A DNA stretch of 62,143 bases from Candidatus Cloacimonadota bacterium (GTDB taxonomy: Bacteria; Cloacimonadota; Cloacimonadia; JGIOTU-2): contig JAGMCF010000110.1 in the NCBI GenBank assembly GCA_023129415.1, positions 1 to 62,143 on the forward strand, given 5' to 3'. Below the pieces are notes generated by a model. It was not told the origin of the DNA and did no database searches. It saw only the letters and a list, made by a program, of their open reading frames with translations. Positions 1,047 to 59,077 of this stretch are shown here, piece after piece. Every line of letters begins with the position of its first letter. The stretch's first letter is position 1. Both the position numbers and the translations under genes were made by a program.

Positions 1047-1366
1047 ATGAAATATACATGTCCCGAAAACAAATCGGGACACACCCGTCTGCCCGTCTTG
1101 GCTCGGCAAGTCATCCCATTGCTCTGGAAACCTAAATGTGCCAAGCCGAGACAGAGGCGCCGAGCCTGAAAGGAGCAGGAAAATTTAACATGTTTTGGAG
1201 TCGACACCTGCCCTACACTTTTTCTGGAAGGAGTCTCTTGCCGAATTCAGTTGACAGATTCCCACTTTTTTACCGCAATAGGATAAACCTATTGCTACCC
1301 TTAGTTTTTTTTAGATGGGTAGATTCGGGTTAATCCCGAATTGCAATAACAAAAAGGTATTTACAT
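1047..1366 (+). mobile_element. ATGAAA-head element, copy 1, with nested insertions and REP-like hairpins
   Basis: Head ATGAAATATACATGTCCCGA..TCGGGACAC..AAAGGAGCAGGAAAAT matches copies at 1367, 11119, 29342(-) and 39359; tail AAAAAGGTATTTACAT abuts the next ATGAAA. Confidence 0.75.
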
Positions 1367-1518
1367 ATGAAACATTCATGTCCCGAATCCCCGATTAGAT
1401 CGGGGACGGGACACAAAGGAGCATGAAAATTATCAATAATTTAAAAAGATTGGATTTTATGAATAATATATTGTTAGTGTTAATTCGTGTAGTTCGTGGC
1501 TAAAAAAAGGATTTTCAG
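1367..1518 (+). mobile_element. ATGAAA-head element, copy 2; its tail supplies the fabD RBS
   Basis: Alignable end to end with 29151-29342(-); ends AAAAAAAGGATTTTCAG immediately before fabD ATGAAA. Confidence 0.8.
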
Positions 1519-2448
1519 ATGAAAAAGAATAACATTGCTTTCGTTTTTCCCGGTCAGGGAGCTCAATATATTGGAATGGCAAAAGAATTCTATTCTCTTT
1601 CTGAATATAAAAACTATTTTGATATTGCAAATGAAAAACTTGGCTATGACCTTAAAAACATTATGTTTGAAGGTCCAATGGATGAGTTGAAGAAAACCCA
1701 TAATACTCAACCAGCCATTCTTTTGCATAGTATACTTGCGTTTAAATATTTTCAAAAGAAGTATGAAATTGAACCAAAATTTGTTGCTGGTCATTCCTTA
1801 GGTGAATTCTCTGCTCTTGTTGTTGCTGATGTTCTTGATTGGGAAGATGCTCTTTTTTTGGTTCATAAACGCGGAAAATTTATGATTGAAGCAAGTAAAG
1901 GTGTCCCTTTTAAAATGGCAGCAATAATTGGTCTAAACAAAGATATTATTGTAGAAATTTGTAATAATATTTCTGGAATTGTTATAGCTGCAAATTTTAA
2001 TACTCCAATACAGACTGTAATTAGTGGAGAAACTAAAGCGGTTTCTGAAGCTATTGAAAAATGCAAAAATGCAGGTGCAAAAAGAGTAGTAGAATTAGTA
2101 GTTGGTGGAGCCTTCCATTCACCACTGATTGCTAAATCTGCTGAGTGGTTACAAGCTGAAATGGATAGAATAAATTTCAAAAACGCAAAAATTCCAATAA
2201 TATCAAATTTCAAAGCAAAGCCAGAAACAGAACCAGAAGAAATAGTTGAAAATTTAACTAAACAAATTATTTCTCCAGTTCGCTGGGTTGAAACCATTGA
2301 ATTTATGATAAATAATGGAGTTGATACTTTTATAGAATTTGGTCCAGGCAAGATTGTCTCCGGGATGATTAAAGCTATTAATAGAAATACAAAAAGATTT
2401 AATATTGATAAGATTGAGGATGTACCTAAAGTTTTAGATAACATTTAA
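1519..2448 (+). CDS. fabD: Malonyl CoA-ACP transacylase
   Basis: FPGQGAQ, GHSLGE and AFHS motifs. Confidence 0.97.
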   Translation: MKKNNIAFVFPGQGAQYIGMAKEFYSLSEYKNYFDIANEKLGYDLKNIMFEGPMDELKKTHNTQPAILLHSILAFKYFQKKYEIEPKFVAGHSLGEFSALVVADVLDWEDALFLVHKRGKFMIEASKGVPFKMAAIIGLNKDIIVEICNNISGIVIAANFNTPIQTVISGETKAVSEAIEKCKNAGAKRVVELVVGGAFHSPLIAKSAEWLQAEMDRINFKNAKIPIISNFKAKPETEPEEIVENLTKQIISPVRWVETIEFMINNGVDTFIEFGPGKIVSGMIKAINRNTKRFNIDKIEDVPKVLDNI

Positions 2449-2471
2449 TATTTATAAGAAAGGAAAATTAT

Positions 2472-3788
2472 ATGACAGCTGAAATAGCAATAATGAATAA
2501 GGAAGCGGTTGCCCTTGCAGCTGATAGTGCTGTTACAATGGGGCAAGAAGGGAAATGGGAACAAAAGGTTTTTACTTCAGCTAATAAGCTTTTTACTCTC
2601 TCTAAATATTATCCTGTGGGAATAATGGTTTATGGAAGTGCAAGTTTTATGGGTGTTCCTTGGCAGACTATAATAAAGATATATAGGAGTAAATTAGGCA
2701 AGCAAAAGCTTGACACGTTAAAAGAATATGCTGACAATTTCATAGCGTTCTTGAATAACGATAATCCATTATTTCCAGAACGCCAGCAAAAGGAGTATCT
2801 ATACGGGAATACTTCTAGTTATTTTGCTCTTATTAGGAAAGAAATCGAAAAAAGAGTAAAATCGACTACCGACCAAGAGGGAGAAATTACAAATACCCAA
2901 GTTAAACAAATAACAACTAATGTCATAAGAGAACACCATAATAAATTGGAAAAAGCTAAAATGCTACCATCAATTCCAGAAACTCATATTGAAGACATAA
3001 TAAAGAAATATAGTGATATTATCGATAAGGCAAGAAAAGATGTTTTCGAAAAATTACCCATATCTGCTGTTTCTTTGAATCAATTGAGAAAGATCAGTGT
3101 AAGTTTATTTTCAAAAGATATTTTCCCAATTAATATTTCTGGAGCAGTAATCGCTGGTTTTGGAGATAAGGATACATTTCCTTCACTTAGGTCATTCGAT
3201 ATTGAAGGGATAGTTAATAACAAGTTGAAATACAAATATAATAAACATTTATCAACAGAAATTAGTTTTGAAATGGGATCTACAATTATTCCTTTTGCTC
3301 AAAGAGAAATGGTACATACATTTATGGAAGGTGTTGATCCTGATCTCCAAAGATATATGGAAGATAGTTTATTCCAGATTTTCGGAAAATATCCGAAAAT
3401 CATTGTTGAAAATATCGGGAAATTTAACGATAAAGAAAAGCAGGAACTCTTAAAAAAATTGGAACAGGTGAGCAATAAAATATTTAAAGATTATCAAAAG
3501 CATATGACAATCTTTAGAAGAAATTATTATGCTGACCCTATTATGAAAGTTGTAGCAGGGCTTCCGAAAAATGAACTTGCGACAATGGCGGAAACACTTG
3601 TAAATTTAACCTTATTTAAACGAAAAGTTTCACCTGAAGCTGAAACAGCTGCAGGTCCTATTGATGTCGCTGTAATTTCTAAAGGCGATGGATTTATCTG
3701 GATCAAGAGGAAGCATTACTTTAAGTCGGAATTAAATCCACAATTCTTTGCTAACTATTTTACGGAGGTAAAAGATGAAAAAAAATAA
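2472..3788 (+). CDS. Hypothetical protein with putative Ntn-hydrolase/proteasome-beta-like N- and C-terminal segments
   Basis: 438 aa with AAGGA RBS; M-T-AEIAIMNKEAVALAADS N-terminus and GPIDVAVI near the C-terminus; fold is inferred. Confidence 0.6.
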   Translation: MTAEIAIMNKEAVALAADSAVTMGQEGKWEQKVFTSANKLFTLSKYYPVGIMVYGSASFMGVPWQTIIKIYRSKLGKQKLDTLKEYADNFIAFLNNDNPLFPERQQKEYLYGNTSSYFALIRKEIEKRVKSTTDQEGEITNTQVKQITTNVIREHHNKLEKAKMLPSIPETHIEDIIKKYSDIIDKARKDVFEKLPISAVSLNQLRKISVSLFSKDIFPINISGAVIAGFGDKDTFPSLRSFDIEGIVNNKLKYKYNKHLSTEISFEMGSTIIPFAQREMVHTFMEGVDPDLQRYMEDSLFQIFGKYPKIIVENIGKFNDKEKQELLKKLEQVSNKIFKDYQKHMTIFRRNYYADPIMKVVAGLPKNELATMAETLVNLTLFKRKVSPEAETAAGPIDVAVISKGDGFIWIKRKHYFKSELNPQFFANYFTEVKDEKK

Positions 3789-3948
3789 TAAAATGGGGAA
3801 AGTGTATAAGTCAATGGAAGAATTTGAGAAGAAATTCTTTCCAAATTCTTTCAAAGACCGATTAATAAAGTCTATGGATATCCGTACTCAGGCAGTTACT
3901 TCAGCTAAAGAGTCCTTAGAGAGAATCAGGCAGCAGCTAAAAGGATAG
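3775..3948 (+). CDS. Small hypothetical protein (57 aa; not in ORF track)
   Basis: GGAGG at 3764-3768, ATG at 3775, MKKNNKMGKVYKSMEEFEKKFFPNSF...QLKG*; overlaps the upstream stop. Confidence 0.6.
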   Translation: MKKNNKMGKVYKSMEEFEKKFFPNSFKDRLIKSMDIRTQAVTSAKESLERIRQQLKG

Positions 3949-4217
3949 CCAGTTAATCCAATTATACCGCAAAATCTGAAACAGAACCAAAAGAGATAAT
4001 TGAAAATTTAACCAAACAAATTATTTCTCCAGTTCGATGGGTTGAAACTATTGAATTTATGATAAATAATGGAGTTGATACTTTTATTGAATTCGGTCCA
4101 GGCAAGATTGTCTCTGGAATGATTAAAGCTATTGATAGAAATATAAAGAGATATAATATTGATAAAATTGAAGATGTTGAGAAATTACTAAATGAAATAG
4201 GGGACAAACAATTATGA
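3949..4217 (+). pseudogene. fabD: Second, divergent copy of the fabD 3' end
   Basis: 3957-4178 aligns to 2203-2424; its stop TGA (4215-4217) overlaps the fabG ATG. Confidence 0.9.
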
Positions 4218-11118: not shown

Positions 11119-11433
11119 ATGAGACATAAATGCTCAAAATCCTCAATTTGATTAGAGGATGGGACACAAAGGAGCATGAAAATATATAAGACTATTATTG
11201 ATAATTTTTAGAGTAGGCGAGTTCATCCCTGCCCGCCAAGGCTTGGCAGGCGGGCTTCGTAGAATGGATCTCTCTTGTTATGCTGAAACAGGATAAACCT
11301 GTTTCTACCCATCCCACAACTTGTGGGTATCCCCAATTTAATTGGGGATGGGTTTATCCCAAATCTAAATAAAGTGAAATTATAAAATAATTACTTTGTG
11401 TCTTTGAGTCTTTGTGGTAATGAATTTTTCTCA
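11119..11433 (+). mobile_element. ATGAAA-head element, degenerate copy upstream of lpdA
   Basis: ATGAGACATAAATG..GGGACACAAAGGAGCATGAAAAT at 11119-11183; REP hairpin shared with copy 1. Confidence 0.7.
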
Positions 11434-11443
11434 GGAGGAAAGA

Positions 11444-12841
11444 TTGAAGAATTATACGGTAGCAATTATTGGCGGAGGTCCTGGAGGTTATGTAACTGCA
11501 ATACGATTAAAACAATATGGAATTGATGTAGTAGTTTTTGAAAAAGAAAGACTTGGTGGAGTGTGCCTGAATTGGGGTTGTATTCCGACAAAGACACTTG
11601 TTAAAGTTGCTGATTTATTTAGTGAATGTAAGCAAGCTTGCGAATTTGGCATTTCTCTGCAAAATCCAAAAATTAATTATGAGAAGATTTTCAATCGAAA
11701 AAATGAAGTAGTTAATAAACTTGTTTCAGGTGTTGAATTCATTTTCAAAAAACGAAATATACCTGTCATATATGAAAAAGTCACCAAAATTCAACAAAAC
11801 GATGAAGACTACACAATCCTAACAGAAAATTCCCAAATAAATTCAAAATATGTCATACTTGCTACAGGTTCTGTTCCTAAGGAACTACCTACTTTGATAT
11901 TTGACAGTGAAAATATCCTTTCTTCCAAAGATATACTAAAGATGGAAACACTCCCTGAAAAATTGGCTGTTGTGGGTGGAGGAGTAATTGGTTGTGAATT
12001 TGCATCAATTTTTTCACAATTGGGTTTACAGGTTGAAATAATTGAATTTTTACCAAGTTTAGTAAATACAGAAGACATTGAAATATCCAAAAGACTTGCA
12101 ATAGCTTTAAAAAAATCTGGTATAAAAATTCATTTGAATACTGCTGTAGAAGGCTATAAGAAAATCAATGATAAAATACATCTAATGCTTTCCAACGGTA
12201 AAACTGTTGTAACAAATAAGGTTCTAATAAGTATCGGAAGGACTCCTCAATGCAATATTGAATTTATAAATTGTTATCTTGAAAATGATGGTAGTGCTAT
12301 AAAAATAGATAATAATTTCGAAACAAACCTTCCAAATATTTTTGCGATAGGGGATGTAACTGGTAAAATGCTTTTAGCACACACAGCAAGCAAGCAGGGT
12401 TTAATCACTGCTGAAATAATACGAAATGAATTAGAGGGGAATAACATAAAAACAGAAAAATTAATATATGAAAATATACCTCGTTGTACTTTCACCAATC
12501 CAGAAATAGGTTCCGTTGGCTTAACCGAGAGACAAGCAAGGGATAAATTTGAAGAAATCCTTATAGGGAAATTTCCTTTTACTGCTAATGGCAAAGCACT
12601 ATGTTTGGGAAATACATTTGGTTTTGTTAAAACTGTTGCAGATAAAGAAAGTCAAAAATTAGTTGGAATGCATATTATTGGTCCACATGCCACTGAGCTA
12701 ATAGCAGAAGGTGCAATTTTGATTAGTAATGGTGTGACTATTAAGGAAGCTGAGAAAATCGTCTATGCTCATCCAACACTTTCAGAGGTTGTTGCAGAAT
12801 CAATTGAAGACCTCAAAAATCTTGCTATACATAAGATATAA
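11444..12841 (+). CDS. lpdA: Dihydrolipoamide dehydrogenase
   Basis: GGGPGGY, GGVCLNWGCIP and HPTLSE motifs; TTG start after AGGAGG. Confidence 0.95.
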   Translation: MKNYTVAIIGGGPGGYVTAIRLKQYGIDVVVFEKERLGGVCLNWGCIPTKTLVKVADLFSECKQACEFGISLQNPKINYEKIFNRKNEVVNKLVSGVEFIFKKRNIPVIYEKVTKIQQNDEDYTILTENSQINSKYVILATGSVPKELPTLIFDSENILSSKDILKMETLPEKLAVVGGGVIGCEFASIFSQLGLQVEIIEFLPSLVNTEDIEISKRLAIALKKSGIKIHLNTAVEGYKKINDKIHLMLSNGKTVVTNKVLISIGRTPQCNIEFINCYLENDGSAIKIDNNFETNLPNIFAIGDVTGKMLLAHTASKQGLITAEIIRNELEGNNIKTEKLIYENIPRCTFTNPEIGSVGLTERQARDKFEEILIGKFPFTANGKALCLGNTFGFVKTVADKESQKLVGMHIIGPHATELIAEGAILISNGVTIKEAEKIVYAHPTLSEVVAESIEDLKNLAIHKI

Positions 12842-12900: not shown

Positions 12901-13415
12901 TTCGTGCCTGCCCTGTTAAATTTATTTTCTATTTAACTGGGGTAATTTTTGGTTCACCCTTCGTAGTCCCGATTATATCGGGACGGAGAACGGGCAAGAT
13001 ATTTTTATTCTGCCTTGAGATTCTTTTATAAAGGCTATTTAAATGACTAATTACTCCCGACCTATCGGGACTAATTTCTAATAATCCGCCAGCTGGCGGA
13101 CAAATATCAAATACCAAATATAAAAGGATTAGTCTTCGGAGATTTTGTTTTGGCATGATTTGACATTCTTGCCCCGTTAGATAGTAAAGATGGTAGGAAT
13201 TATAACTTTATTAGAGTAGGAAGGTGTTAGAACCTAAATTGGAAAATATAAATCCTTTATCTAACGGGGTGAGGGCTTTGTCATTTTATTTGACATTAGT
13301 CCCGACTTGTCGGGAAGAAATTATTGGCTTTATTACTGATTAATATTTCCTGTTTGGTTCTGCCCGCCCCGTTAAATTTTCTTTTCTATTTAACTGGGGG
13401 CTTGTCCAGGTTAGG
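12901..13415. repeat. Pile-up of nested mini-palindromic elements
   Basis: Elements at 12907-12942, 12953-12995, 13055-13070, 13085-13100, 13172-13269, 13300-13315 and 13363-13399. Confidence 0.8.
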
Positions 13416-22469: not shown

Positions 22470-22544
22470 TGGAGCCACCAGCGGGATTTGAACCCACGAC
22501 CTACTAATTACGAATCAGTTGCTCTACCACTGAGCTATGGTGGC
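22470..22544 (-). tRNA. tRNA-Thr(CGT)
   Basis: GCCACCA acceptor, anticodon loop TTCGTAA, GGTTCAAATCC, encoded CCA. Confidence 0.95.
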
Positions 22545-27545: not shown

Positions 27546-27895
27546 TGGTGGAGGTGGCGGGAATCGAACCCGCGTCCAGAGATTTGGTTGCAAGAACTTC
27601 TACATACATAGTCAGTTGTATTTTCTTATTCAGTACAGAACAGCGGACAAACCTGTACAGAACCAGTCTATAAATTTCAATACTGCTTATAGACATCACA
27701 ATATTAGAGCCATTTTGAACGACATTTGAAAAGAAGCAAATGGCAACCTCTATTCAAATGTAGCTACTTTCTTTAAGCAGCTAAAGCTAGATTTTCATCT
27801 GCATTTCAGTTTGGTATCACCATTTTTACGGTATAGGTAATCTCACCGGTATGCTATTCTTGCACCCGCAATCCCTGTCAAAGCCAGTCACCCCC
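27546..27895 (-). ncRNA. ssrA: tmRNA; tag reading frame ADENLALAA* at 27802-27773
   Basis: 5' GGGGGTG / 3' CACCTCCACCA with G3:U; GGTTCGATTCC T-arm; Ala-ending tag ORF. Confidence 0.95.
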
Positions 27896-28034: not shown

Positions 28035-29150
28035 TCAATTCATCTTATCATACTTTTCTTTGAATTGCTTTATACTCTCATATATTGCTTTAGCAGCTTG
28101 ATTCTGGAACCAATTTGATTTCAATCTTTGTTCTTCCCATTTATTAGAAAGAAATGCCACCTCTACCAAAATAGCGGGCATAAATGCTCCTCTGAGTACA
28201 TAGAAATTTGCATGTTTAACTCCTTTATCATTAGTGCCCAACTCTTTTACTAACGATTTCTGACACATCTCAGTCAAATCTATGCTCTCAATCAAGTATT
28301 CACTTTGCCGCATATCATAGAGTATAAAATCTAAATCAGTATACCGTTTGATACTTTCTGGGTCTTCAAATCTGATAGCATCATTTTCCAGAGCCTCTAC
28401 TGCTCGTGCCTCCGTAGTCTTTGCAGGCGAAAGGTAGTATACTTCCGTTCCATTAGCTCGTGTGTTTCTTGACGCATTGCAATGAATACTTACAAATAAG
28501 TCTGCCTGATGGTTATTTGCAAATTCTGTCCTGTCTCCAAGAGATACAAATCTATCATCTTCACGGGTTAGCAAAATTTCAACATCAAGATTATTTTCAA
28601 GAAGTTGCTTTGTTTCCTTTGCAATATTTAAAACTATATCTTTTTCTTTAAGTTTTAAAATCCTACCAACAGCCCCTGGGTCTTTACCTCCATGTCCCGG
28701 ATCAATCACTATTCGTTTGATTAGATACTGTTCCATAGCAGTAAGATTAACAATTATTCTATTATTATTGATTACAACACAATCAGGAAAGAACTTATTA
28801 GCACATAGATTTAAAAAATATTTGGGGATATAAAAATTACCATCTTGTATTTTTATATTATCATATAAATTATAGTTTTTTTTGCCAAATTTTACCCATT
28901 TATTGTCAAAAAAGAATCTACATTTTTTATTAAAGATTGTAAAATCTATTGTTTGTAAATTTGGATTAATATCTAATTTGGCTTCAAATACTCGTATTAA
29001 ATCATAAATATCAATATAACTTCTGTTTTGTAGTTGATATATTTGAAGATGGTCCTTTCTTGAGGAGTTAACATAAGATATTGTATATTCATTTGCAAAA
29101 AGAGAAAATGTCAAAGATAGAAGAATTATTATAATTATAATTTTTTTCAT
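28035..29150 (-). CDS. N-acetylmuramoyl-L-alanine amidase (Amidase_3)
   Basis: IDPGHGG, SIHCN and LVEVAF motifs; real start MKKIIIIIILL at 29150 (the first 64 codons of the called ORF are the repeat element). Confidence 0.92.
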   Translation of the reverse strand: MKKIIIIIILLSLTFSLFANEYTISYVNSSRKDHLQIYQLQNRSYIDIYDLIRVFEAKLDINPNLQTIDFTIFNKKCRFFFDNKWVKFGKKNYNLYDNIKIQDGNFYIPKYFLNLCANKFFPDCVVINNNRIIVNLTAMEQYLIKRIVIDPGHGGKDPGAVGRILKLKEKDIVLNIAKETKQLLENNLDVEILLTREDDRFVSLGDRTEFANNHQADLFVSIHCNASRNTRANGTEVYYLSPAKTTEARAVEALENDAIRFEDPESIKRYTDLDFILYDMRQSEYLIESIDLTEMCQKSLVKELGTNDKGVKHANFYVLRGAFMPAILVEVAFLSNKWEEQRLKSNWFQNQAAKAIYESIKQFKEKYDKMN

Positions 29151-29342
29151 CTGAAAATCCCTTTTTAGCCACGAACAACACGAACTAACACGAACAATAT
29201 TTATATTAAAGTTAAACCTTTTTAAATTATAAATAATTTTCATACTCCTTTCAGACTCGGCACGTCTTGGCTCCCGATGTATCGGGAGACAGGCGCCCAG
29301 ACGGATGTGTCCGGATTTGTTTTCGGGACATGTATGTTTCAT
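29151..29342 (-). mobile_element. ATGAAA-head element; its tail supplies the amidase RBS
   Basis: Head at 29342-29236, tail AAAAAGGGATTTTCAG before ATGAAA; homologous to 1367-1518. Confidence 0.8.
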
Positions 29343-29464: not shown

Positions 29465-32176
29465 ATGAAAGAGAAACTTTATATCATTGACGGAACAGCG
29501 GTTATTTACCGCTCTTTTTATGCTTTTAAAAACAGACCCTTAATCAACTCAAAGGGAGAGAATACCAGTGCAATTTTTGGATTTCTTCGTACAATCATTT
29601 CTATAATTGAAAAATTTAATCCAAAATACTTTGCTATTACTTTTGATGAAAAAGAGCCTACATTTCGTCATAAGAAATATCCAGATTATAAGGCTACAAG
29701 AGACAAAATGCCTGAAGAATTGGTTGAACAATTAGAACCTATTCAGGATTTGGTAAAATCTACAAATATTCCATATCTTTCATTACCCGGGTATGAAGCT
29801 GATGACATAATTGGAACTCTCACACAAAAATTCTCTGATAAATGCGATGTTGTAATCGTTTCTCGGGATAAGGATTTTTATCAACTTGTGAGCGATAAGG
29901 TTAGTTTATTTGACTTGTCAAAAGATAAGTTTGTTGGCAAAGAAGAGGTCAAAGAGAAGTTTGGAACCACTCCTGATAAGGTTATTGATATTCTGGCATT
30001 GACGGGCGACTCTGCTGATAATATTCTTGGCATTCCAAAAGTTGGCATCAAGACCGCAATAAAATTGATTCAGCATTTCGGCAGTTTGGAAAATATCCTG
30101 GCAAATAGCGAAGAAATAACACAAAAACATATAAAAGAAAATGTGGCAAAATTCAGCCAGCAAGGAATTTTATCAAAGGAATTGGTTACAATTGACCGCA
30201 ATGTGCCAATAGATGTATCACTAGAAGACTTTACCCTTCAAAGTATTTTTAGTGAAGACTTAAGAAAATTCTGTGAACGATATGAGCTGAATACATTCAT
30301 GAAGTACTTTTCTACCAGAAGTAGAACATTTGAAGATACAAAAAAAGATCTCTCCCCTACCGAAAAAATTGAGTATTGCTTAATCAACAATAAGTCCCTA
30401 TTTGAGAAACTCTTATCAAAATTACAAAAACAAGAAAAAATTGCCATTGATGTTGAAACAAACTCTTGCAGTCCTATTAAGGGCAAAATAGTTGGCATCT
30501 CAATCTGTTTTGAAAACAGTAAAGCTTACTATATTCCAATTAGACATTATATTGGAAAGCAACTAAGTGCTAAAGAAGTCTTAACTGCTATAAAACCAAT
30601 TTTAGAAGATGATAAAAAATACTTCATAGGTCATAATATAAAATTTGATTATATGATTTTCCAGAATGAAGGGATTGAAATAGCAAATCTATGTTTTGAT
30701 ACAATGATTGCATCTTATCTCCTTTCACCTGAGGAACATCGGCATAATCTTGATACAGTGAGTCAGCGATATTTACATCATAAAATGATTCCTATTGAAG
30801 AACTTATCGGTAAAAAAGGAAAAAATCAGATGAGTTTTACTGAAACTCTCATTAAAGATGCCACAGAATATTCTGGTGAAGATGCTAATGTGACTTATAG
30901 ATTATGGAAAATATTAGAAAAAAAGTTAGCCGAGTTTGATATGCAGGAACTATTCTTCAAAATTGAGATGCCCCTCATTAAAACTCTTGCAAATATTGAA
31001 AGGAACGGAATCTCGGTTGACCAGATTTTCTTTGCAAAATTATCAAAGGAATTAGAAGTTAAACTTGCAATTCTCCAAAGAGATATTCATCAAATTGCTG
31101 GGGAGATTTTCAATATTGACTCTCCATTGCAATTATCAAAAGTGCTGTTTGAAAAATTAGGTCTACCTGTTGTTAAAAAGACCAAATCTGGCTATTCAAC
31201 TGACATAAATGTTTTAACTAAACTAAGCAGGGATTATGAAATTGCAGAGAAACTTATCGGGTATCGGCAGTTAAAGAAACTAAAATCTACTTATTTAGAT
31301 GCTTTGCCAAAACTGATTAATCCCAAAACTGGACGGATTCATTCTTCATTTAATCAAACAGTAACAGCGACAGGACGGCTTTCAAGTTCTGAACCAAATC
31401 TACAGAATATCCCGATACGAACTGAAATTGGCAGAGAAATGCGAAAAGGTTTTATTCCCAGGCATTCTGACTTCTCCATTCTCTCTGCTGATTATTCACA
31501 GATAGAATTGCGAGTTATGGCTATAATTTCTAAGGATGAAAATCTTATAGCAAATTTTAAAAAAGGAGGAGATGTTCATTCACAAACAGCAGCTCTTGTA
31601 TTTGGAGTAAAGGAAAATGAAGTAACTCCCAATCAGAGACGACAGGCAAAGGTTATAAACTTCGGTATTATGTATGGGATGGGTTCGTATTCTCTATCGC
31701 AAGACTTACGGATTTCACGAAAAGAAGCACAAGCATTTATTGATAACTATTTCTCACATTATCCTCAGGTGAAGCATTATATAGATGAGACAATTGAATT
31801 TGCTCATAAGAACGAGTATGTTAAAACACTTTTTAATCGTCGTCGATACTTGACTGGAATAAATAGTCGTAATCATCAAATTCAAGCATTTGCAGAAAGA
31901 ACTGCTATAAATATGCCCATTCAGGGAACCGCCGCCGATATTATCAAAATCGCAATGAATAATATCTATCAGAAAATTAAAGATAAGGATGATGAAATAA
32001 AGATGATTATACAGATTCACGATGAGCTGGTTTTTGAAGTGAAAACCACATTTATTAACAAATACAGAAAATTGATAAAGATTGAGATGGAATCTGTTTT
32101 GCCATCTAACTATAGTGATATTGTGCCTTTAGTTGTAGATATTGGATATGGTAAGAATTGGTTGGAAGCACATTGA
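29465..32176 (+). CDS. polA: DNA polymerase I
   Basis: 5'-3' exonuclease (EADD), DYSQIELR, INFGIMYG, QIHDEL; start moved to ATG 29465. Confidence 0.97.
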   Translation: MKEKLYIIDGTAVIYRSFYAFKNRPLINSKGENTSAIFGFLRTIISIIEKFNPKYFAITFDEKEPTFRHKKYPDYKATRDKMPEELVEQLEPIQDLVKSTNIPYLSLPGYEADDIIGTLTQKFSDKCDVVIVSRDKDFYQLVSDKVSLFDLSKDKFVGKEEVKEKFGTTPDKVIDILALTGDSADNILGIPKVGIKTAIKLIQHFGSLENILANSEEITQKHIKENVAKFSQQGILSKELVTIDRNVPIDVSLEDFTLQSIFSEDLRKFCERYELNTFMKYFSTRSRTFEDTKKDLSPTEKIEYCLINNKSLFEKLLSKLQKQEKIAIDVETNSCSPIKGKIVGISICFENSKAYYIPIRHYIGKQLSAKEVLTAIKPILEDDKKYFIGHNIKFDYMIFQNEGIEIANLCFDTMIASYLLSPEEHRHNLDTVSQRYLHHKMIPIEELIGKKGKNQMSFTETLIKDATEYSGEDANVTYRLWKILEKKLAEFDMQELFFKIEMPLIKTLANIERNGISVDQIFFAKLSKELEVKLAILQRDIHQIAGEIFNIDSPLQLSKVLFEKLGLPVVKKTKSGYSTDINVLTKLSRDYEIAEKLIGYRQLKKLKSTYLDALPKLINPKTGRIHSSFNQTVTATGRLSSSEPNLQNIPIRTEIGREMRKGFIPRHSDFSILSADYSQIELRVMAIISKDENLIANFKKGGDVHSQTAALVFGVKENEVTPNQRRQAKVINFGIMYGMGSYSLSQDLRISRKEAQAFIDNYFSHYPQVKHYIDETIEFAHKNEYVKTLFNRRRYLTGINSRNHQIQAFAERTAINMPIQGTAADIIKIAMNNIYQKIKDKDDEIKMIIQIHDELVFEVKTTFINKYRKLIKIEMESVLPSNYSDIVPLVVDIGYGKNWLEAH

Positions 32177-32220
32177 ATTGGTTGAATTGGTGAACTGGTA
32201 AACTGGTAAATTAGTAAACT
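32175..32220 (+). repeat. 8-mer array RGTDAAYT right after the polA stop
   Basis: ggtgaact ggtaaact ggtaaatt agtaaact. Confidence 0.75.
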
Positions 32221-32296
32221 TGTTGGTGACTAAAATCTTTTAGGCTAAATTTATTAGCGTTTATTCGCGTCCATTCGTGGTTAAAATCTTATTTGG

Positions 32297-36042: not shown

Positions 36043-36544
36043 ACAATCGTCCAGCACCTATTTTTGAATAAACATAAAACTGATAACATTCTATCCTCTG
36101 CAGTTATTTAGTTTTGTAGAGTTTAATTGTGTAGACATGTTTGAAAATAGGTGCTGGAAGGAAAGTCCGAACACCTGGAGCAAAATACTTCGTAACACGA
36201 AGTCCCGGTAAAGGGAAGATAGTGCCACAGAAAACAAACCGTCCTGAATCTTTTCGGGATAAGGGTGAAAAGGTGGTGTAAGAGACCACCAGTTCCCCGA
36301 GTGATCGGGAAAGCTTGGTAAACCTTATTGGTGCAAGGTCAAATAGGAGAGGATCCTTCTGATATTTCGAAGGAACGAATAGCTCCGTTCGTTATACTCT
36401 CGGGTAGACCGCAAAAATCAGTCTCCCGAACTGACGGGGTGAATCCCGATACATCGGGATGCGGTGACGCCTGATTTAGATAAATGATTGTCGTCCCGAC
36501 TTCTTTAAGTCGGGAAACAGAATTCGGCTTATTATTTTCTTTAG
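36029..36544 (+). ncRNA. rnpB: RNase P RNA (type A-like, enlarged)
   Basis: GGAAAGTCCGAACAC, AGTGCCACAGAAA, AAGGGTGAAAAGGTGGTGTAAGAG and AACAGAATTCGGCTTA; P1 ctaaagaaaat/attttctttag. Confidence 0.95.
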
Positions 36545-36556
36545 TAGGCTTTTTCA

Positions 36557-39358: not shown

Positions 39359-39518
39359 ATGAAACAAACATCCACCAGCTAGTGGACAGAGAAGCATGGA
39401 AATTATTTAATAATCAGTCAATTTCAATAAAAGTTATAATAATTTGTGCGAATCAGCTTTATCAACTTAATCTGCCTGTCCTGCGAAGCTTTAGCGTAGA
39501 AGGGCGTGCTATTTTAAC
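39359..39518 (+). mobile_element. ATGAAA-head element, divergent copy upstream of lnt
   Basis: ATGAAACAAACA-[tccaccagctagtgga]-CAGAGAAGCATGGAAAT; region ends at lnt ATGGAA. Confidence 0.6.
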
Positions 39519-41042
39519 ATGGAAAAATTAAAACAAATAAAACATAAGCATATTCCCTTTTTTTGGTGGGCAATACTTTCAGGAATACTTTTTGGATTAT
39601 CATTAATAGATATTGAACTTGGTTTCTTGTCATTCTTTGCATTTGCTATCTATTTATCTATTGTGATAAAATCAAACTCCAAACAAAGCTTTTTATATGG
39701 TTTATTATTTGGGTTTGTATTAAGTTGCATTACACTTTATTCAACAATATTAGTTAAGGTAATTGCTTTTATCGGACTTTTAATAGCAATGCCCTTGTAT
39801 TTTGGAATTATTACTCTCTTTATTAAAAAAGTCCAATTAAGGTTTACAAAATCTTTTATATGGTTCTTCCCAATAATCTGGATTGCTTTTGAATATTTTA
39901 TGACATTAGGTCCTTTGAATTTTCCCTGGCATAATGTTGGTTATTCTCTTGCTAATTATTATTATTTGATTCAATTTGCAGATATTTTTGGAATTTATGG
40001 TATCTCCTTTATAGTTCTTATTATAAACATATTAATTTACAGAATTTTCTCAGGTAAATTTAAAGATATAACTTTCATAATAATCATTTTCATGCTCTGG
40101 TTTGGTTATGGTTTCTATAAAGATAAAACAATTAAGCTTCAAAAAGAAGATTTAAAAATTGGGATTGTTCAATTAAATATCCTACAAGAGGATAAATGGA
40201 ATCCTGCGATTTTAGATTCTACTATAGTGGAATATGCAAAACAAGTTTCCATTGTTGTAAAAGAGGATAGTGTTGATTTGGTAATATTTCCGGAATCTGC
40301 TATTACTACACATCTCTTACATGAAAGAGAGTATAAAAAAAGAATATCTAATATGGCAATTTCAAACAAAGTAAATTTAATCATAGGCTTTCCTGATTAT
40401 GAAGTTAAGTGGATAGATAAAAAGCCAAGATATGAATTTTTTAATAGTGCAACTATGGTTGATAAAGATGGAAATTTCCTTCCTAAATATGATAAGATTA
40501 GACTTGTGCCTTTTGGTGAAAGAATTCCATTTTTGAGAACATTTCCAATTTTAGAGAAACTTCAATTTGGGCAGGCAAATTTTGAATATGGTAAAAACCC
40601 AAGACTGTATCCTATTAATGATTTCCAGTTCCCTATACTTATCTGTTTTGAAGGTGTTTTCCCTGAATTATCAAGACAATATGTTCGAAAAGGAGCTGAT
40701 TTCATAGTTGTTATCACAAATGATGGATGGTTTCAAGAAACTGCATTCCCAAAAGAACACGCAAATAATACAAAAATTCGTGCTGTGGAAAATCGTGTGT
40801 CTTTATTCCGCGCTGCAAATACTGGGATTTCTTATATAGTAAATCCTAAAGGACAAATAATTGAAAAAACAGAAATTTACGAAAAGGAAAATATATCTGA
40901 TTTTCTATTTACATCAAAAAATAAATTTTCTTTTTTTGTAAAAGTTGGATATATATTCCCGATAATCTGCTTCTGGGTTTCAATTATATTGATTATTTAT
41001 GCAATATTTTCTAAACTTATATTGGTGAGAAAAAATGATTAA
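39519..41042 (+). CDS. lnt: Apolipoprotein N-acyltransferase
   Basis: FPES, KIRLVPFGE, ICFE and TNDGWF motifs. Confidence 0.95.
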   Translation: MEKLKQIKHKHIPFFWWAILSGILFGLSLIDIELGFLSFFAFAIYLSIVIKSNSKQSFLYGLLFGFVLSCITLYSTILVKVIAFIGLLIAMPLYFGIITLFIKKVQLRFTKSFIWFFPIIWIAFEYFMTLGPLNFPWHNVGYSLANYYYLIQFADIFGIYGISFIVLIINILIYRIFSGKFKDITFIIIIFMLWFGYGFYKDKTIKLQKEDLKIGIVQLNILQEDKWNPAILDSTIVEYAKQVSIVVKEDSVDLVIFPESAITTHLLHEREYKKRISNMAISNKVNLIIGFPDYEVKWIDKKPRYEFFNSATMVDKDGNFLPKYDKIRLVPFGERIPFLRTFPILEKLQFGQANFEYGKNPRLYPINDFQFPILICFEGVFPELSRQYVRKGADFIVVITNDGWFQETAFPKEHANNTKIRAVENRVSLFRAANTGISYIVNPKGQIIEKTEIYEKENISDFLFTSKNKFSFFVKVGYIFPIICFWVSIILIIYAIFSKLILVRKND

Positions 41043-48932: not shown

Positions 48933-49022
48933 GAAATGTAATAATCCTTTATAAAACTTAAAGGATTAAAACTATTTATCGATCTATCAATAGTATCAAC
49001 AGACAATTCTGCTTTAATTCCC

Positions 49023-49101
49023 TCATTCCATTAAAACCCCGAACATCCCGATAAATCGGGACTACGTGGCAGGCCCCAGTGAAATATAATACGAATTTCA
49101 C
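49023..49101 (+). repeat. 79-bp direct repeat (partner at 50723-50801): CRISPR-like half repeat plus two nested palindromes
   Basis: Two mismatches by manual alignment; offset exactly 1700. Confidence 0.9.
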
Positions 49102-50602: not shown

Positions 50603-50818
50603 GTTTAAGTTCTACATTCCATCAAAACCCCGAATACATACTTCGTATTCTACAGGGGCAGGCAAGAATTGAAACTTCAGTTTATCTCAAAAATTCAGTC
50701 TATCTCAATGAGTTTAGTTTAATCATTCCATTAAAACCCCGAACATCCCGATAAATCGGGACTACGGGGCAGGCCCCAGTGAAATATATTACGAATTTCA
50801 CGGGGCAGGCAAGGATTG
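50603..50818 (+). CRISPR. Orphan degenerate mini-array (repeat, 36-nt spacer, repeat), both repeats interrupted by insertions
   Basis: With inserts removed: GTTTAAGTTCTACATTCCATCAAAAC^AAGAATTGAAAC and GTTTAGTTTAATCATTCCATTAAAAC^AAGGATTG. Confidence 0.6.
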
Positions 50819-51057: not shown

Positions 51058-52134
51058 ATGAAGGCACTTGTGCTCTGTGCTGGAAAAGGTACTCGTCTTC
51101 AACCTATTACCTATTCTTTGCCAAAACATGTAATACCTATTGCAAATCAGCCAATTGTTTTTCATATTATTAAAAAATTAGTAAACTTAGGAATTACAGA
51201 AATAGGTCTAATCGTTGGATATAAACAGGAAATTATAAGGCAAGTTGTTGGTAATGGTGTGCAACTTGGTGCTAAAGTTGAATATTTTGTTCAGGAAGAA
51301 CCAAAAGGTTTGGCTCATGCAGTAAAAATTGGACAATCATTTGTTGGTTCAGAACCATTTATAGTATTTCTTGGAGATAATATATTTGAAGATGATCTGA
51401 GTAATTTAGTTAAACGATATGAAAAAGAAAAGCCTGACAGTATTATCATCCTCAAAGAGGTTGATGAACCACAGAGGTTTGGAATTGCAACTATGGATGG
51501 TGATAGATTGGTCAAGGTAGTAGAGAAACCCAAAGAACCTCCATCAAATCTGGCAATTGCTGGGGTATATATTTTTGATGAAAGGGTCTTCTTTGCTATT
51601 GATAATCTTAAACCTTCATGGCGTGGTGAATATGAAATTACAGATGCAATTCAGGCACTTATTGATCAAAATTTAATTGTAAAAGGTGAAATTCTTAAAG
51701 GGAAGTGGCTGGATACCGGAAAACCTGAAGATATATTAGATGCCAACCAATATCTTATGAATAAACTAAAAGGTTTGTATATTCATGGAGATATTGATGA
51801 AATTTCTGTATTGGAGAATTCCGTGTATATAGGGAAAAATAGCAAAATTGAAAATTGCAAAATAATTGGTCCTATTATTATTGGGGAAAAATGTTTCATA
51901 TCAAATTCCTCTTTATATCCAAATACATGTATTGGTAACAATTCTAAAATCGCTGATACAGAAATTGAAAATAGTATCATTATGAAAAATAGTTCAATTT
52001 CAAATATTAAAGGGAGAATTTCAGATAGTATAATTGGTGAAAATGTTAATATTCATTCTCCTGATAAAATCGGGACTATTAAAAATGAATGCAAAATGAT
52101 ATTTGGAAATGATGCTGTGCTAATATGTGAATAA
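51058..52134 (+). CDS. Glucose-1-phosphate thymidylyltransferase (long form)
   Basis: AGKGTRLQP, QEEPKGLAHA, EKP and WLDTG motifs; hexapeptide tail. Confidence 0.9.
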   Translation: MKALVLCAGKGTRLQPITYSLPKHVIPIANQPIVFHIIKKLVNLGITEIGLIVGYKQEIIRQVVGNGVQLGAKVEYFVQEEPKGLAHAVKIGQSFVGSEPFIVFLGDNIFEDDLSNLVKRYEKEKPDSIIILKEVDEPQRFGIATMDGDRLVKVVEKPKEPPSNLAIAGVYIFDERVFFAIDNLKPSWRGEYEITDAIQALIDQNLIVKGEILKGKWLDTGKPEDILDANQYLMNKLKGLYIHGDIDEISVLENSVYIGKNSKIENCKIIGPIIIGEKCFISNSSLYPNTCIGNNSKIADTEIENSIIMKNSSISNIKGRISDSIIGENVNIHSPDKIGTIKNECKMIFGNDAVLICE

Positions 52135-52229
52135 GTAAATTGGTTAATTAGTAAATTGGTTAATTGGTGAATTAGTGAACTGGTAAATTGGTGAATTGGT
52201 AAATTGGTGAACTGGTTAATTAGTAAATG
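52134..52229 (+). repeat. Twelve tandem 8-mers (RGTDAAYT) starting at the stop codon
   Basis: agtaaatt ggttaatt agtaaatt ggttaatt ggtgaatt agtgaact ... Confidence 0.9.
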
Positions 52230-52309
52230 TAATAGATATGAATATAAAAATAGAAATTAAAATAATCTCCTAAATACATGATTTATTTCATGAAATAGAA
52301 AGAATCACA

Positions 52310-57039: not shown

Positions 57040-57091
57040 ATAATTTCTCCAGAATTTTATTCATTCAAATAGTAATAAATAGTCAAAAGTA

Positions 57092-57249
57092 GTCAAATGA
57101 GCCTTTGGCTCGTCAAACATAGTCATATGCTCCTTTGGAAGCGTTAAATGTGCCTTCGGCTCGTCAAACATAGTCATATGCTCCTTTGGAGCGTCAAATG
57201 TGCCTTCGGCTCGTCAAACATAGTCATATGCTCCTTCGGAGCGTTAAAT
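57092..57249. repeat. Three tandem ~50-bp units, each with two small hairpins
   Basis: gtcaaatgtgccttcggctcgtcaaacatagtcatatgctccttcggagc repeated three times. Confidence 0.92.
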
Positions 57250-58878: not shown

Positions 58879-59077
58879 GTGTCTGTCTGTAAAGTCCACC
58901 CAATTAAATTGGGGGTTGTAGAACGACCTTTCCGTCTGGGCGCCGAGACCGACCAAGGTCGTTACTGTAAATAGGCTTTAAATGTGCCATAAGAAAACGA
59001 GTTCACCCTTCGTAGTCCCGATTGTATCGGGACGGAGAACGGGCTAGGAACCTCGTTCTACATTTAGGGACAGACAC
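58879..59077. mobile_element. Inverted copy of the 10270-10390 MITE carrying extra nested insertions
   Basis: Same TIR and REP pair; aataaata direct repeat on both flanks. Confidence 0.82.

Follow-up and report, generated by a model that had tools for sequence, protein, structure and literature searches.

The DNA analyzed here is a stretch of 62,143 nucleotides (nt), referred to below as the window, that makes up one contig (C14) of a metagenome-assembled genome (MAG) of a Candidatus Cloacimonadota bacterium. It carries five copies of a repeated element, which lie upstream of fabD, lpdA, an amidase gene and lnt. All five copies that an original prediction had picked out from the letters of the window were found: two in tandem before fabD (at 1047 and 1367) and one each at 11119, at 29342 on the minus strand, and at 39359. 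The 19-mer CACAAAGGAGCATGAAAAT has four matches in the window at no more than 3 mismatches, against 0.04 expected, and the fifth copy, at 39359, is more diverged and reads CAGAGAAGCATGGAAAT. A short 12-mer from the head of the element was not significant on its own in the window (4 matches vs. 2.5 expected). Two of the host genes were confirmed by Pfam searches, as Amidase_3 and Lnt.

As established from 58 complete arrays in the genome, a unit consists of a left box (H1), a hairpin, optional GC-rich inserts, a second box (H2), a body and a tail, followed by ATGAAA. Unit 1 of the fabD tandem (1047-1366, plus strand) begins right after the fabH stop codon TAA (1044-1046), at a left junction spanned by metagenome contigs at 822-1083. 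Its head is made up of H1 ATGAAATATACATG, the hairpin TGTCCCGA..TCGGGACA, a GC-rich insert of about 80 nt and H2 CTGAAAGGAGCAGGAAAAT (1166-1184), and these are followed by a class c body (AGGATAAACCTATTGCTACCC..GGGTAGATTCGGGTTAATCCCGAA) and the tail AAAAAGGTATTTACAT. Unit 2 (1367-1518, plus strand) has H1 ATGAAACATTCATG, a nested hairpin at 1379-1411, H2 CACAAAGGAGCATGAAAAT (1412-1430), a class a body with direct repeats of the TTCGTG type, and the tail GGCTAAAAAAAGGATTTTCAG that reaches to 1518; its fold has a z-score of -2.6 relative to shuffled sequence. This tail abuts the ATGAAA start of fabD (1519-2448, plus strand), a gene that begins with ATGAAT in related strains where the site is empty.

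The amidase copy (29342-29151, minus strand) has a head with a GC-rich insert, H2 CTGAAAGGAGTATGAAAAT, a class a body and the tail GGCTAAAAAGGGATTTTCAG, which lies on ATGAAAAAA, the start of the Amidase_3 gene at 29150 on the same strand. This copy and the fabD-proximal one had been described as alike, with both tails on ATGAAA, and they are indeed 85% identical over positions 49-152 and share the end GGATTTTCAG directly on ATGAAA. The diverged lnt copy (39359-39518, plus strand) consists of H1 ATGAAACAAACA, the hairpin TCCACCAGCTAGTGGA, an H2 variant GCATGGAAAT, a class d body with a nested GC hairpin, and the tail GTGCTATTTTAAC on ATGGAAAAA at 39519. Every copy had been said to lie directly upstream of a host start, and this is true for fabD, the amidase gene and lnt; ATGAAA had been expected at the host start as well, and it is present at fabD and the amidase gene but not at lnt, which starts with ATGGAA, as does the H2 box of its copy. 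The copy upstream of lpdA (11119-11440, plus strand; H1 variant ATGAGACATAAATG, hairpin TCCTCAATTTGATTAGAGGA, H2 at 11165-11183, class c body, CTTTGTG-type end) does not finish at the start of lpdA: the tail reads ...CTTTGTGGTAATGAATTTTTCTCAG and then GAGGAAAGA-TTG, and the copy stops about 25 nt before this codon. Because the tail continues in this way, the lpdA start is likely to be the TTG at 11444, with an AGGAGG of its own, or otherwise the ATG at 11420. In addition, an H2-like box, AGACAGGAGACAAAGGAGCAGATAAGT, lies at the start of the contig (29-55, plus strand), just before the fabH GTG at 54, and the contig probably begins inside a further array.

We analyzed the family in the source MAG (G000; 3.46 Mb, 300 contigs, 32% G+C, stated contamination 7%) using longest open reading frames (ORFs) of at least 90 amino acids (aa) as gene calls, and compared it with 41 relatives (G-numbered genomes), 232 genomes of the phylum and public cold-seep metagenome contigs (X-numbered runs). 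Tail-like 9-mers stood before a start codon opening at least 100 aa in 94 cases; 60 of these had a repeated tail, and 58 were kept after two junctions at false TTG codons within paralogous genes were dropped. The search with head and tail motifs that the original prediction had proposed thus yielded 86 H1..H2 heads and 58 arrays in which the tail runs directly into the start of an ORF of at least 100 aa. The gene downstream of the head is co-oriented in 76 of the 86 cases, opposed in 7 and missing in 3; 65 heads lie between two co-oriented genes vs. 3 between two opposed genes. ATGAAA starts 56 of the 58 abutted genes (the others start with ATGAAT and ATGAGA), compared with a background of 490 of 2584 crude starts (19%). 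Among 1085 loose tail matches, ATGAAA came next in 92 and the runner-up hexamer in 8; 24 of these 92 run into a head, and 52 of the other 68 open an ORF of at least 100 aa. Outside ORFs and arrays, ATGAAA occurs at 495 crude starts and at 1180 other places in G000, so that the hexamer alone fails to explain the preference for real starts. The host genes, which include fabD, pheT, mnmA, purM, fmt, the amidase gene and lnt, look functionally unrelated.

H1 is ATGAAACATACATG, with the head running from ATGAAA through CATACATG into the hairpin, 8 nt from the left boundary, and H2 is ACAAAGGAGNATGAAAAT. The bodies had been described as variable; several kinds do exist, but they form a few recurring classes rather than varying freely. 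Most close with three short direct repeats (GTTCGTG, CTTTGTG, CTCTGTG or ATCTGYGT), and one class is a three-hairpin block, AACAGGATAAACCTGTTGCTACCC..GGGTAGATTCGGGTTTATCCCGAA. The body is flanked by ATGAAAAT...ATTTTCAT, the sole inverted match, of 7-8 nt. The tail has the form ..GTGGC.AAAGGATTTTCAK, and the six bases after it are the ATGAAA of the next unit or of the host gene; its end is made up of AAAGGA, the 7-nt spacer TTTTCAK and ATGAAA, and the junction TTTTCAT-ATGAAAA is a perfect palindrome. Single units are 150-320 nt long and the 58 start-abutting arrays 57-511 nt, and units are found both in tandem and combined as mosaics. Across 23 distinct 45-nt heads, the six-pair head stem was paired in 85.5% of cells, vs. 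a mean of 73% and a maximum of 80% in 1000 shuffles, and three of the six pairs swap among CG/TA, GC/AT and AT/GC by double changes. These data suggest that the head hairpin is conserved in structure while its sequence varies; because the copies are kin, the covariation is support and not proof.

Over all G000 genes, the frequency of G peaks at -11 to -8 relative to the start codon, and the GG of the tail lies at -10/-9, within this peak. At the level of sequence, this supports the prediction that the tail can rebuild the ribosome-binding site (RBS) of the host gene, the arrangement being that of a canonical Shine-Dalgarno (SD) sequence, spacer and ATG. The 3' end of 16S rRNA (anti-SD) did not turn up in the MAG. 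Initiation is favoured by pyrimidine-rich tracts and by AAA as the second codon. Judged by sequence, the tail would rescue translation and render an insertion harmless. Small ORFs also reach the host start: an ORF of at least 8 codons ends in an ATGA overlap in 39 of 54 arrays vs. 135 of 461 control ATGAAA genes (class a tails are without the overlap), and an ORF of this minimum length ends within -20 to +4 of the host start in 50 of 54 arrays vs. 308 of 461 controls.

The elements are mobile. For 21 orthologous loci, an array present in one genome or strain is missing from another, with the junctions exact at the nucleotide level, and the polymorphism extends down to strains. The empty fabH-fabD alleles whose existence had been predicted were found. 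In G006 the fabD site is compact and reads TAA-GA-ATGAAT, and it is also compact in more distant relatives. Cold-seep contigs from runs X1, X3 and X8 join 1047 to 1534 via ATGAATAAAGACAAT, or to 1528 via ATGAATATA, and one 399-nt metagenome contig aligns to 220 bases of one flank with 4 differences and to 164 of the other with 6; thus, strains that are about 97% identical lack both fabD units and have the fabH TAA directly before the fabD ATG. The filled array is represented as well, since an X2 contig (822-1083) and an X1 contig (1497-1934) cover both of its junctions with zero differences. The purM start is empty in G003 (about 90% protein identity), where ..GAATAATT is directly followed by ATGAAAAAACAG, and filled in G000, where ..GAATAATT is followed by ATAAAACATACG..(421 nt)..GGATTTTCAG and then by ATGAAAAAACAA. 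At fmt, ..ATCAAG followed by TTGAAAAGA in G003 compares with ..ATTAAG followed by ACGAAACATTCATG..GATTTTCAG and then ATGAAAAGA in G000. The pheT and mnmA starts are empty or compact in G002, G006 and G009 and carry different arrays in G001. In the reverse comparison, 25 tail-abutted starts of G001, G002, G004 and G006 had a counterpart in G000, and the 24 that were evaluated comprised 14 empty sites, 7 filled sites and 3 with a decayed tail. The ATGAAA of the head (or ATAAAA, ATGAAC) stands at the position of the old start codon in the 6 of these 14 empty-site pairs whose upstream region is well aligned, and also at purM and fmt.

Two array genes even have alleles without the array within the G000 bin, at about 87% identity. 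The empty allele of one pair has the sequence TGA-GAGTCGAT-ATGAAAAAG; in the other pair (C104/C274), the upstream stop codon of the empty allele overlaps ATGAAG, and the filled allele has ATGAAG, an array of about 380 nt and ATGAAA. The bin holds a second strain or species, seen in the contig pairs C51/C104, C274/C104 and C65/C296 with alleles at about 87-90% nucleotide identity, which is consistent with the 7% contamination and the oversized 3.46-Mb bin. C65 was 100% identical to contig C33 of G003 over the 400 bases compared.

Arrays also turn over in place, the same start codon carrying different arrays in G000 and in G003, G004, G001 or G006. At the C231 start, G000 and G003 have different arrays (the genes being 90-93% identical in nucleotides), and at the C276 start G000 has two units more than G003. 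At the C20 start, the head is common to G000 and G003 (contig C71) and the bodies after H2 differ. The amidase start of the window has a class b array in G004 and a class a array in G000. Because orthologous arrays differ by added units and swapped bodies, modules appear to be gained serially and exchanged at conserved boxes. The old start codon displaced into H1 is often inactivated (ATAAAAC twice, ACGAAAC and ATTAAAC in the array-initial heads of G000 C191, C20 and C99 and of G004 C94), and internal H2 ATGs are often mutated to ATA, ACG, AGG or TTA; selection against decoy starts may be responsible.

Taken together, these data make it probable that the family consists of lineage-specific, non-autonomous, modular mobile elements that integrate in sense orientation exactly at the start codons of protein-coding genes. 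Each unit would be bounded by ATGAAA, the left one (in H1) taking the place of the old start codon, and the tail would equip the host ORF with a full, canonically spaced translation-initiation region. A mini-ORF upstream could also be terminated by the TGA within ATGA, similar to coupling of the MIRU type, and for these reasons an insertion need not silence the gene. An insertion would regenerate its own target, so that repeated insertion could build tandem arrays, and modules could be swapped at the ATGAAA, H2 and tail boxes. A bolder version, which we regard as rather doubtful, is that ATGAAA-type starts are the attachment sites of a dedicated site-specific recombination system that installs, stacks and swaps portable translation-initiation cassettes and overwrites the gene's first two codons, possibly acting on single-stranded DNA next to the head hairpin. 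If true, it would be akin to an integron for ribosome-binding sites.

Several observations weigh against insertion at start codons by such elements. The gene calls are crude, and the copies share descent, so that counts made on them are not independent. Seven heads are opposed to the downstream gene, some arrays begin without an H1 head, and 16 of the 68 tail-plus-ATGAAA ends that do not run into a head open no ORF of at least 60 aa. The ORF starting at H1 is not kept in frame with H2: the coupling frame occurs in 27 of 86 heads, which is the chance level, and exact coupling to the TGA of H2 in 19 of 86. No array or unit in the 3.46-Mb assembly holds a gene and no autonomous copy was found there, and no enzyme tracks the family among Y1 transposases, IS110 and reverse transcriptases, a search that did not include integrases, serine recombinases, IS91 and TnpB. 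The empty sites are a further difficulty. Only 11 of 21 start with ATGAAA; the other 10 are ATGAAT (2), ATGAAG (3), TTGAAA (fmt), ATGCCA (2), ATGCGA and ATGACA, so that a simple duplication of an ATGAAA target does not fit all cases (fabD with ATGAAT, fmt with TTGAAA, and others). Further evidence against a 6-bp duplication comes from C253, whose left hexamer ATGAAA is matched by ATGAAT at the right end, and from several filled sites with ATGAAA on both sides whose empty orthologue has ATGCCA or ATGAAG.

Of the original prediction of recombination at ATGAAA starts, insertion at the start codon is supported by the 21 filled/empty loci, and the hexamer is found at about half of the empty sites. 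This share, 11 of 21, is far above the 19% background, filled sites nearly always read ATGAAA, and two loci with non-consensus hexamers fit a 6-bp duplication, since the lnt copy has ATGGAA both at H2 and at the gene start, and the C104/C274 locus keeps the host ATGAAG on its left. We infer that the hexamer is a recombination site. One reading that remains is that ATGAAA alleles were hit and the empty sites diverged later. Alternatively, the element may overwrite the first two codons instead of strictly needing ATGAAA, which is possible because ATGAAA is found in 11 of 21 empty sites vs. 56 of 58 filled ones. The fabD locus leans to overwriting or to a hypervariable N-terminus, because 5 of its first 15 coding bases (1519-1533) differ between strains with 97%-identical flanks. 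Across these strains the first five codons read MKKNN, MNKDN and MNINN, and a similar N-terminal divergence is seen beside arrays at C65/C296.

The elements were predicted to be non-autonomous, and this agrees with the lack of genes in all units and arrays; no long ORF begins at H2 in the head context, save for read-through into host genes. The long copy carrying a recombinase or transposase that the prediction suggested looking for did not turn up in the G000 assembly. Y1/HUH transposase genes (PF01797) are present in 33 of the 41 relatives and do not discriminate, because relatives that do not carry the family have them in equal abundance, and the IS200-like copies of G000 have unrelated ends. 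IS110 (PF01548) was not found in the incomplete MAGs G000-G004, G009 and G022, nor reverse transcriptase (PF00078) in the incomplete MAGs G001-G004, G006, G009 and G022. There was no match in plasmid and phage collections, and two motif scans of viral contigs gave none either. GC skew, examined for a lagging-strand (single-stranded DNA) bias, is confounded by coding-strand composition, the sense strand being G-rich in 85% of all genes and in 32 of 37 array genes. As to range, BLAST found the unit in 10 of the 41 relatives, and the exact 19-mer of tail plus ATGAAA occurs in 8 of the 232 phylum genomes, with 0 for a reversed-pattern control. Its copy numbers are 46 in G000, 18 in G001, 17 in G006, 10 in G004, 9 in G002, 4 in G003 and 1 in each of two further genomes, and the six genomes with 4-46 copies belong to genera g1 and g3. 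The family is confined to one small clade.

The small ORFs raise the question of what the essential trick of the element is. It may be coupling of the MIRU type rather than the SD sequence, with mini-ORFs from the old start ending at or near ATGA and handing ribosomes over to the host gene, a possibility that we hold tentatively. The excess of ATGA overlaps and of ORFs ending near the host start given above is what one would then expect, ATGTTT...GGGATTTTCATATGA is found in the class b body, mini-ORFs of the class a body overlap one another at ATGA, and a -4 spacing is described for MIRUs in the review passage cited below. The frame of the H1 ORF, however, is at chance, hairpin variants alter the peptide, class a tail ORFs stop about 17 nt before the host ATG, with a TAA, and many H1 and H2 ATGs have been lost by the mutations described above. 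Furthermore, because tail classes are few, the mini-ORF enrichment rests on few independent lineages. The arrays might instead be portable regulatory 5' cassettes under positive selection, similar to REP2, that are spread by homologous recombination or gene conversion and whose hairpin is the site of a regulator. The kept hairpin structure, the strongly conserved H2 and tail boxes, the almost exclusive sense orientation, the bodies swapped behind an orthologous head (C20 vs. G003 C71) and the enrichment at true gene starts over neutral intergenic ATGAAA would all suit cassettes of this kind. They are nevertheless improbable given that the host genes are functionally unrelated, that presence and absence differ between strains about 97% identical, that many copies are decayed, and that naive empty sites have only about 6 nt in common with the element, less than RecA-type exchange requires.

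Hairpin covariation and the unit 2 fold (z = -2.6) are also what a vertically inherited, structured cis-regulatory RNA or leader of the riboswitch kind would display. A match to a known Rfam leader would have spoken for such an origin, and no repeat-related Rfam family reached its gathering score in the window; the only two hits in 1000-1600, from an E-value search, were below threshold, the best being DUF2815 RNA (24 bits against a gathering score of 41.2) and PreQ1 (17.2 bits against one of 39). The tandem and mosaic units do not suit a leader, and the empty orthologous sites in close relatives already contradict it, which leaves this origin very unlikely. As for chimeric joins at low-complexity AT-rich sequence during assembly or binning, the 300 contigs, the 7% contamination and the second strain in the MAG are circumstances in which they could arise. 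We consider such an artefact hardly credible, since the independently assembled X2 and X1 contigs cover the junctions of the fabD array without differences and the family is also present in 7 other genomes.

Mobile elements that integrate at start codons have relatives in kind. According to the passage of a 2025 review that cites Supply et al. 1997, insertion of MIRUs appears to take place at start codons, with a coupling of -4, the repeat ORF overlapping the gene start by 4 nt, and an excerpt of a 2011 review describes them as intergenic in operons: their sites may be filled or empty, short direct repeats flank them, the inverted repeats inside them are rich in GC, and the enzyme that mobilises them is unknown; their reported length is 40-100 bp. 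The present family resembles these descriptions in its start-codon insertions with filled and empty sites (21 loci and 58 arrays). As to the 4-nt overlap, ATGA is seen in 39 of 54 arrays vs. 135 of 461 controls, but not in class a tails, and the frame of the H1 ORF is not conserved (27 of 86). The family differs in its 150-320-nt mosaic units, in its phylum, and in carrying its own SD and ATGAAA, a covarying 5' head hairpin and a flanking hexamer that includes the start codon. The relation to MIRU would be one of analogy and not of membership, the comparison being made by description and not by sequence. The same excerpt of the 2011 review reports 120-150 bp repeats immediately upstream of ORFs, Neisseria REP2 and Borrelia IR-A/IR-B, REP2 having a promoter, RBS and ATG within the repeat, a co-regulated gene set and 23-26 copies. 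Compared by this description, REP2 is similar in that RBS and ATG lie in the repeat upstream of the ORF, which is here the tail AAAGGATTTTCAK plus ATGAAA at 56 of 58 abutted starts, filled sites reading ATGAAA where 10 of 21 empty sites do not. It differs in its co-regulated gene set (the host genes here look unrelated) and in its copy number, and that review passage mentions no start-codon insertion polymorphism between strains.

BIME/REP-RAYT and IS200/IS605 elements, compared here by their commonly known features, are also built of short mosaic modules, and they insert strand-specifically beside a fixed short sequence. The family shares with them the hairpin 8 nt from its left boundary, and G000 has 12 PF01797 matches and GTAG-type palindromes. 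In contrast to theirs, its hairpin varies in sequence instead of being fixed, a right-end hairpin is missing from classes a and b, and neither the ends of the IS200-like copies nor the distribution of Y1 genes matches the family. Miniature inverted-repeat transposable elements (MITEs) are likewise short elements without coding sequence that occur in many copies, and they too have filled as well as empty sites and direct repeats at their flanks. The family differs from them in having a terminal inverted repeat of only 7-8 nt (ATGAAAAT ... ATTTTCAT), a fixed orientation and a start-codon target, and no parent insertion sequence with the same ends, no long copy and no plasmid or phage match was found in the searches above. 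Full-text literature searches, in which supplements lay outside the scope, gave no description of the family. By analogy, this kind of element has precedent in MIRU and REP2, and the family itself appears to be undescribed, differing from both in host, sequence, size, mosaic build, own SD, head hairpin and hexamer boundaries.

How mobile elements find start codons has been an open question since MIRUs, whose enzyme remains unknown. Elements integrating at start codons in this clade would be an independent second case, with more copies, clear module boundaries, recent gain and loss between strains and a built-in RBS, and these properties make comparative and biochemical work on the targeting possible. 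Where a genome carries the family, much of what is annotated as 5' ends, leaders and Met-Lys N-termini would derive from the element, and assemblies break at such repeats. The tail could also serve as a natural portable translation-initiation cassette.

Other repeats and genes of the window and genome were observed as well. GC-rich small palindromes, often after GTAG (for example, GTAGTCCCGATTATATCGGGAC), are very abundant genome-wide, the 14-mer CCGATATATCGGGA occurring 82 times; examples in the window are at 12952-12998 and 59001-59047 and at 49013-49101 and 50713-50801, and many are nested inside arrays. Together with these palindromes, the 12 Y1_Tnp (PF01797) matches in G000, several of them 180-220 aa long, look like a REP/RAYT-type system. 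Within the region 2202-4198, a second copy of the final 243 nt of fabD (2202-2444) lies at 3956-4198, with 86% identity. A 438-aa ORF (2472-3788) and a small ORF (3776-3948) lie between the two copies, and fabG follows from about 4215. The 438-aa ORF had no Pfam or PADLOC match, its sole hint being a weak HerA-like NCBIfam hit far below the cut-off, and the region looks like an inserted cassette that supplied a replacement 3' end of fabD. Ordinary RNAs of the window are a tRNA (22473-22544), tmRNA (27546-27895) and a bacterial RNase P class A RNA (36123-36547). Tandem arrays of an 8-nt unit of the AATTGGTG / AACTGGTA type occur at 32168-32231 and 52113-52232, and a comparable array immediately precedes a head on C50. 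Finally, 57084-57234 holds three tandem 50-nt units with 80-100% identity to the reference copy, containing a small GC hairpin (GCCTTCGGC).

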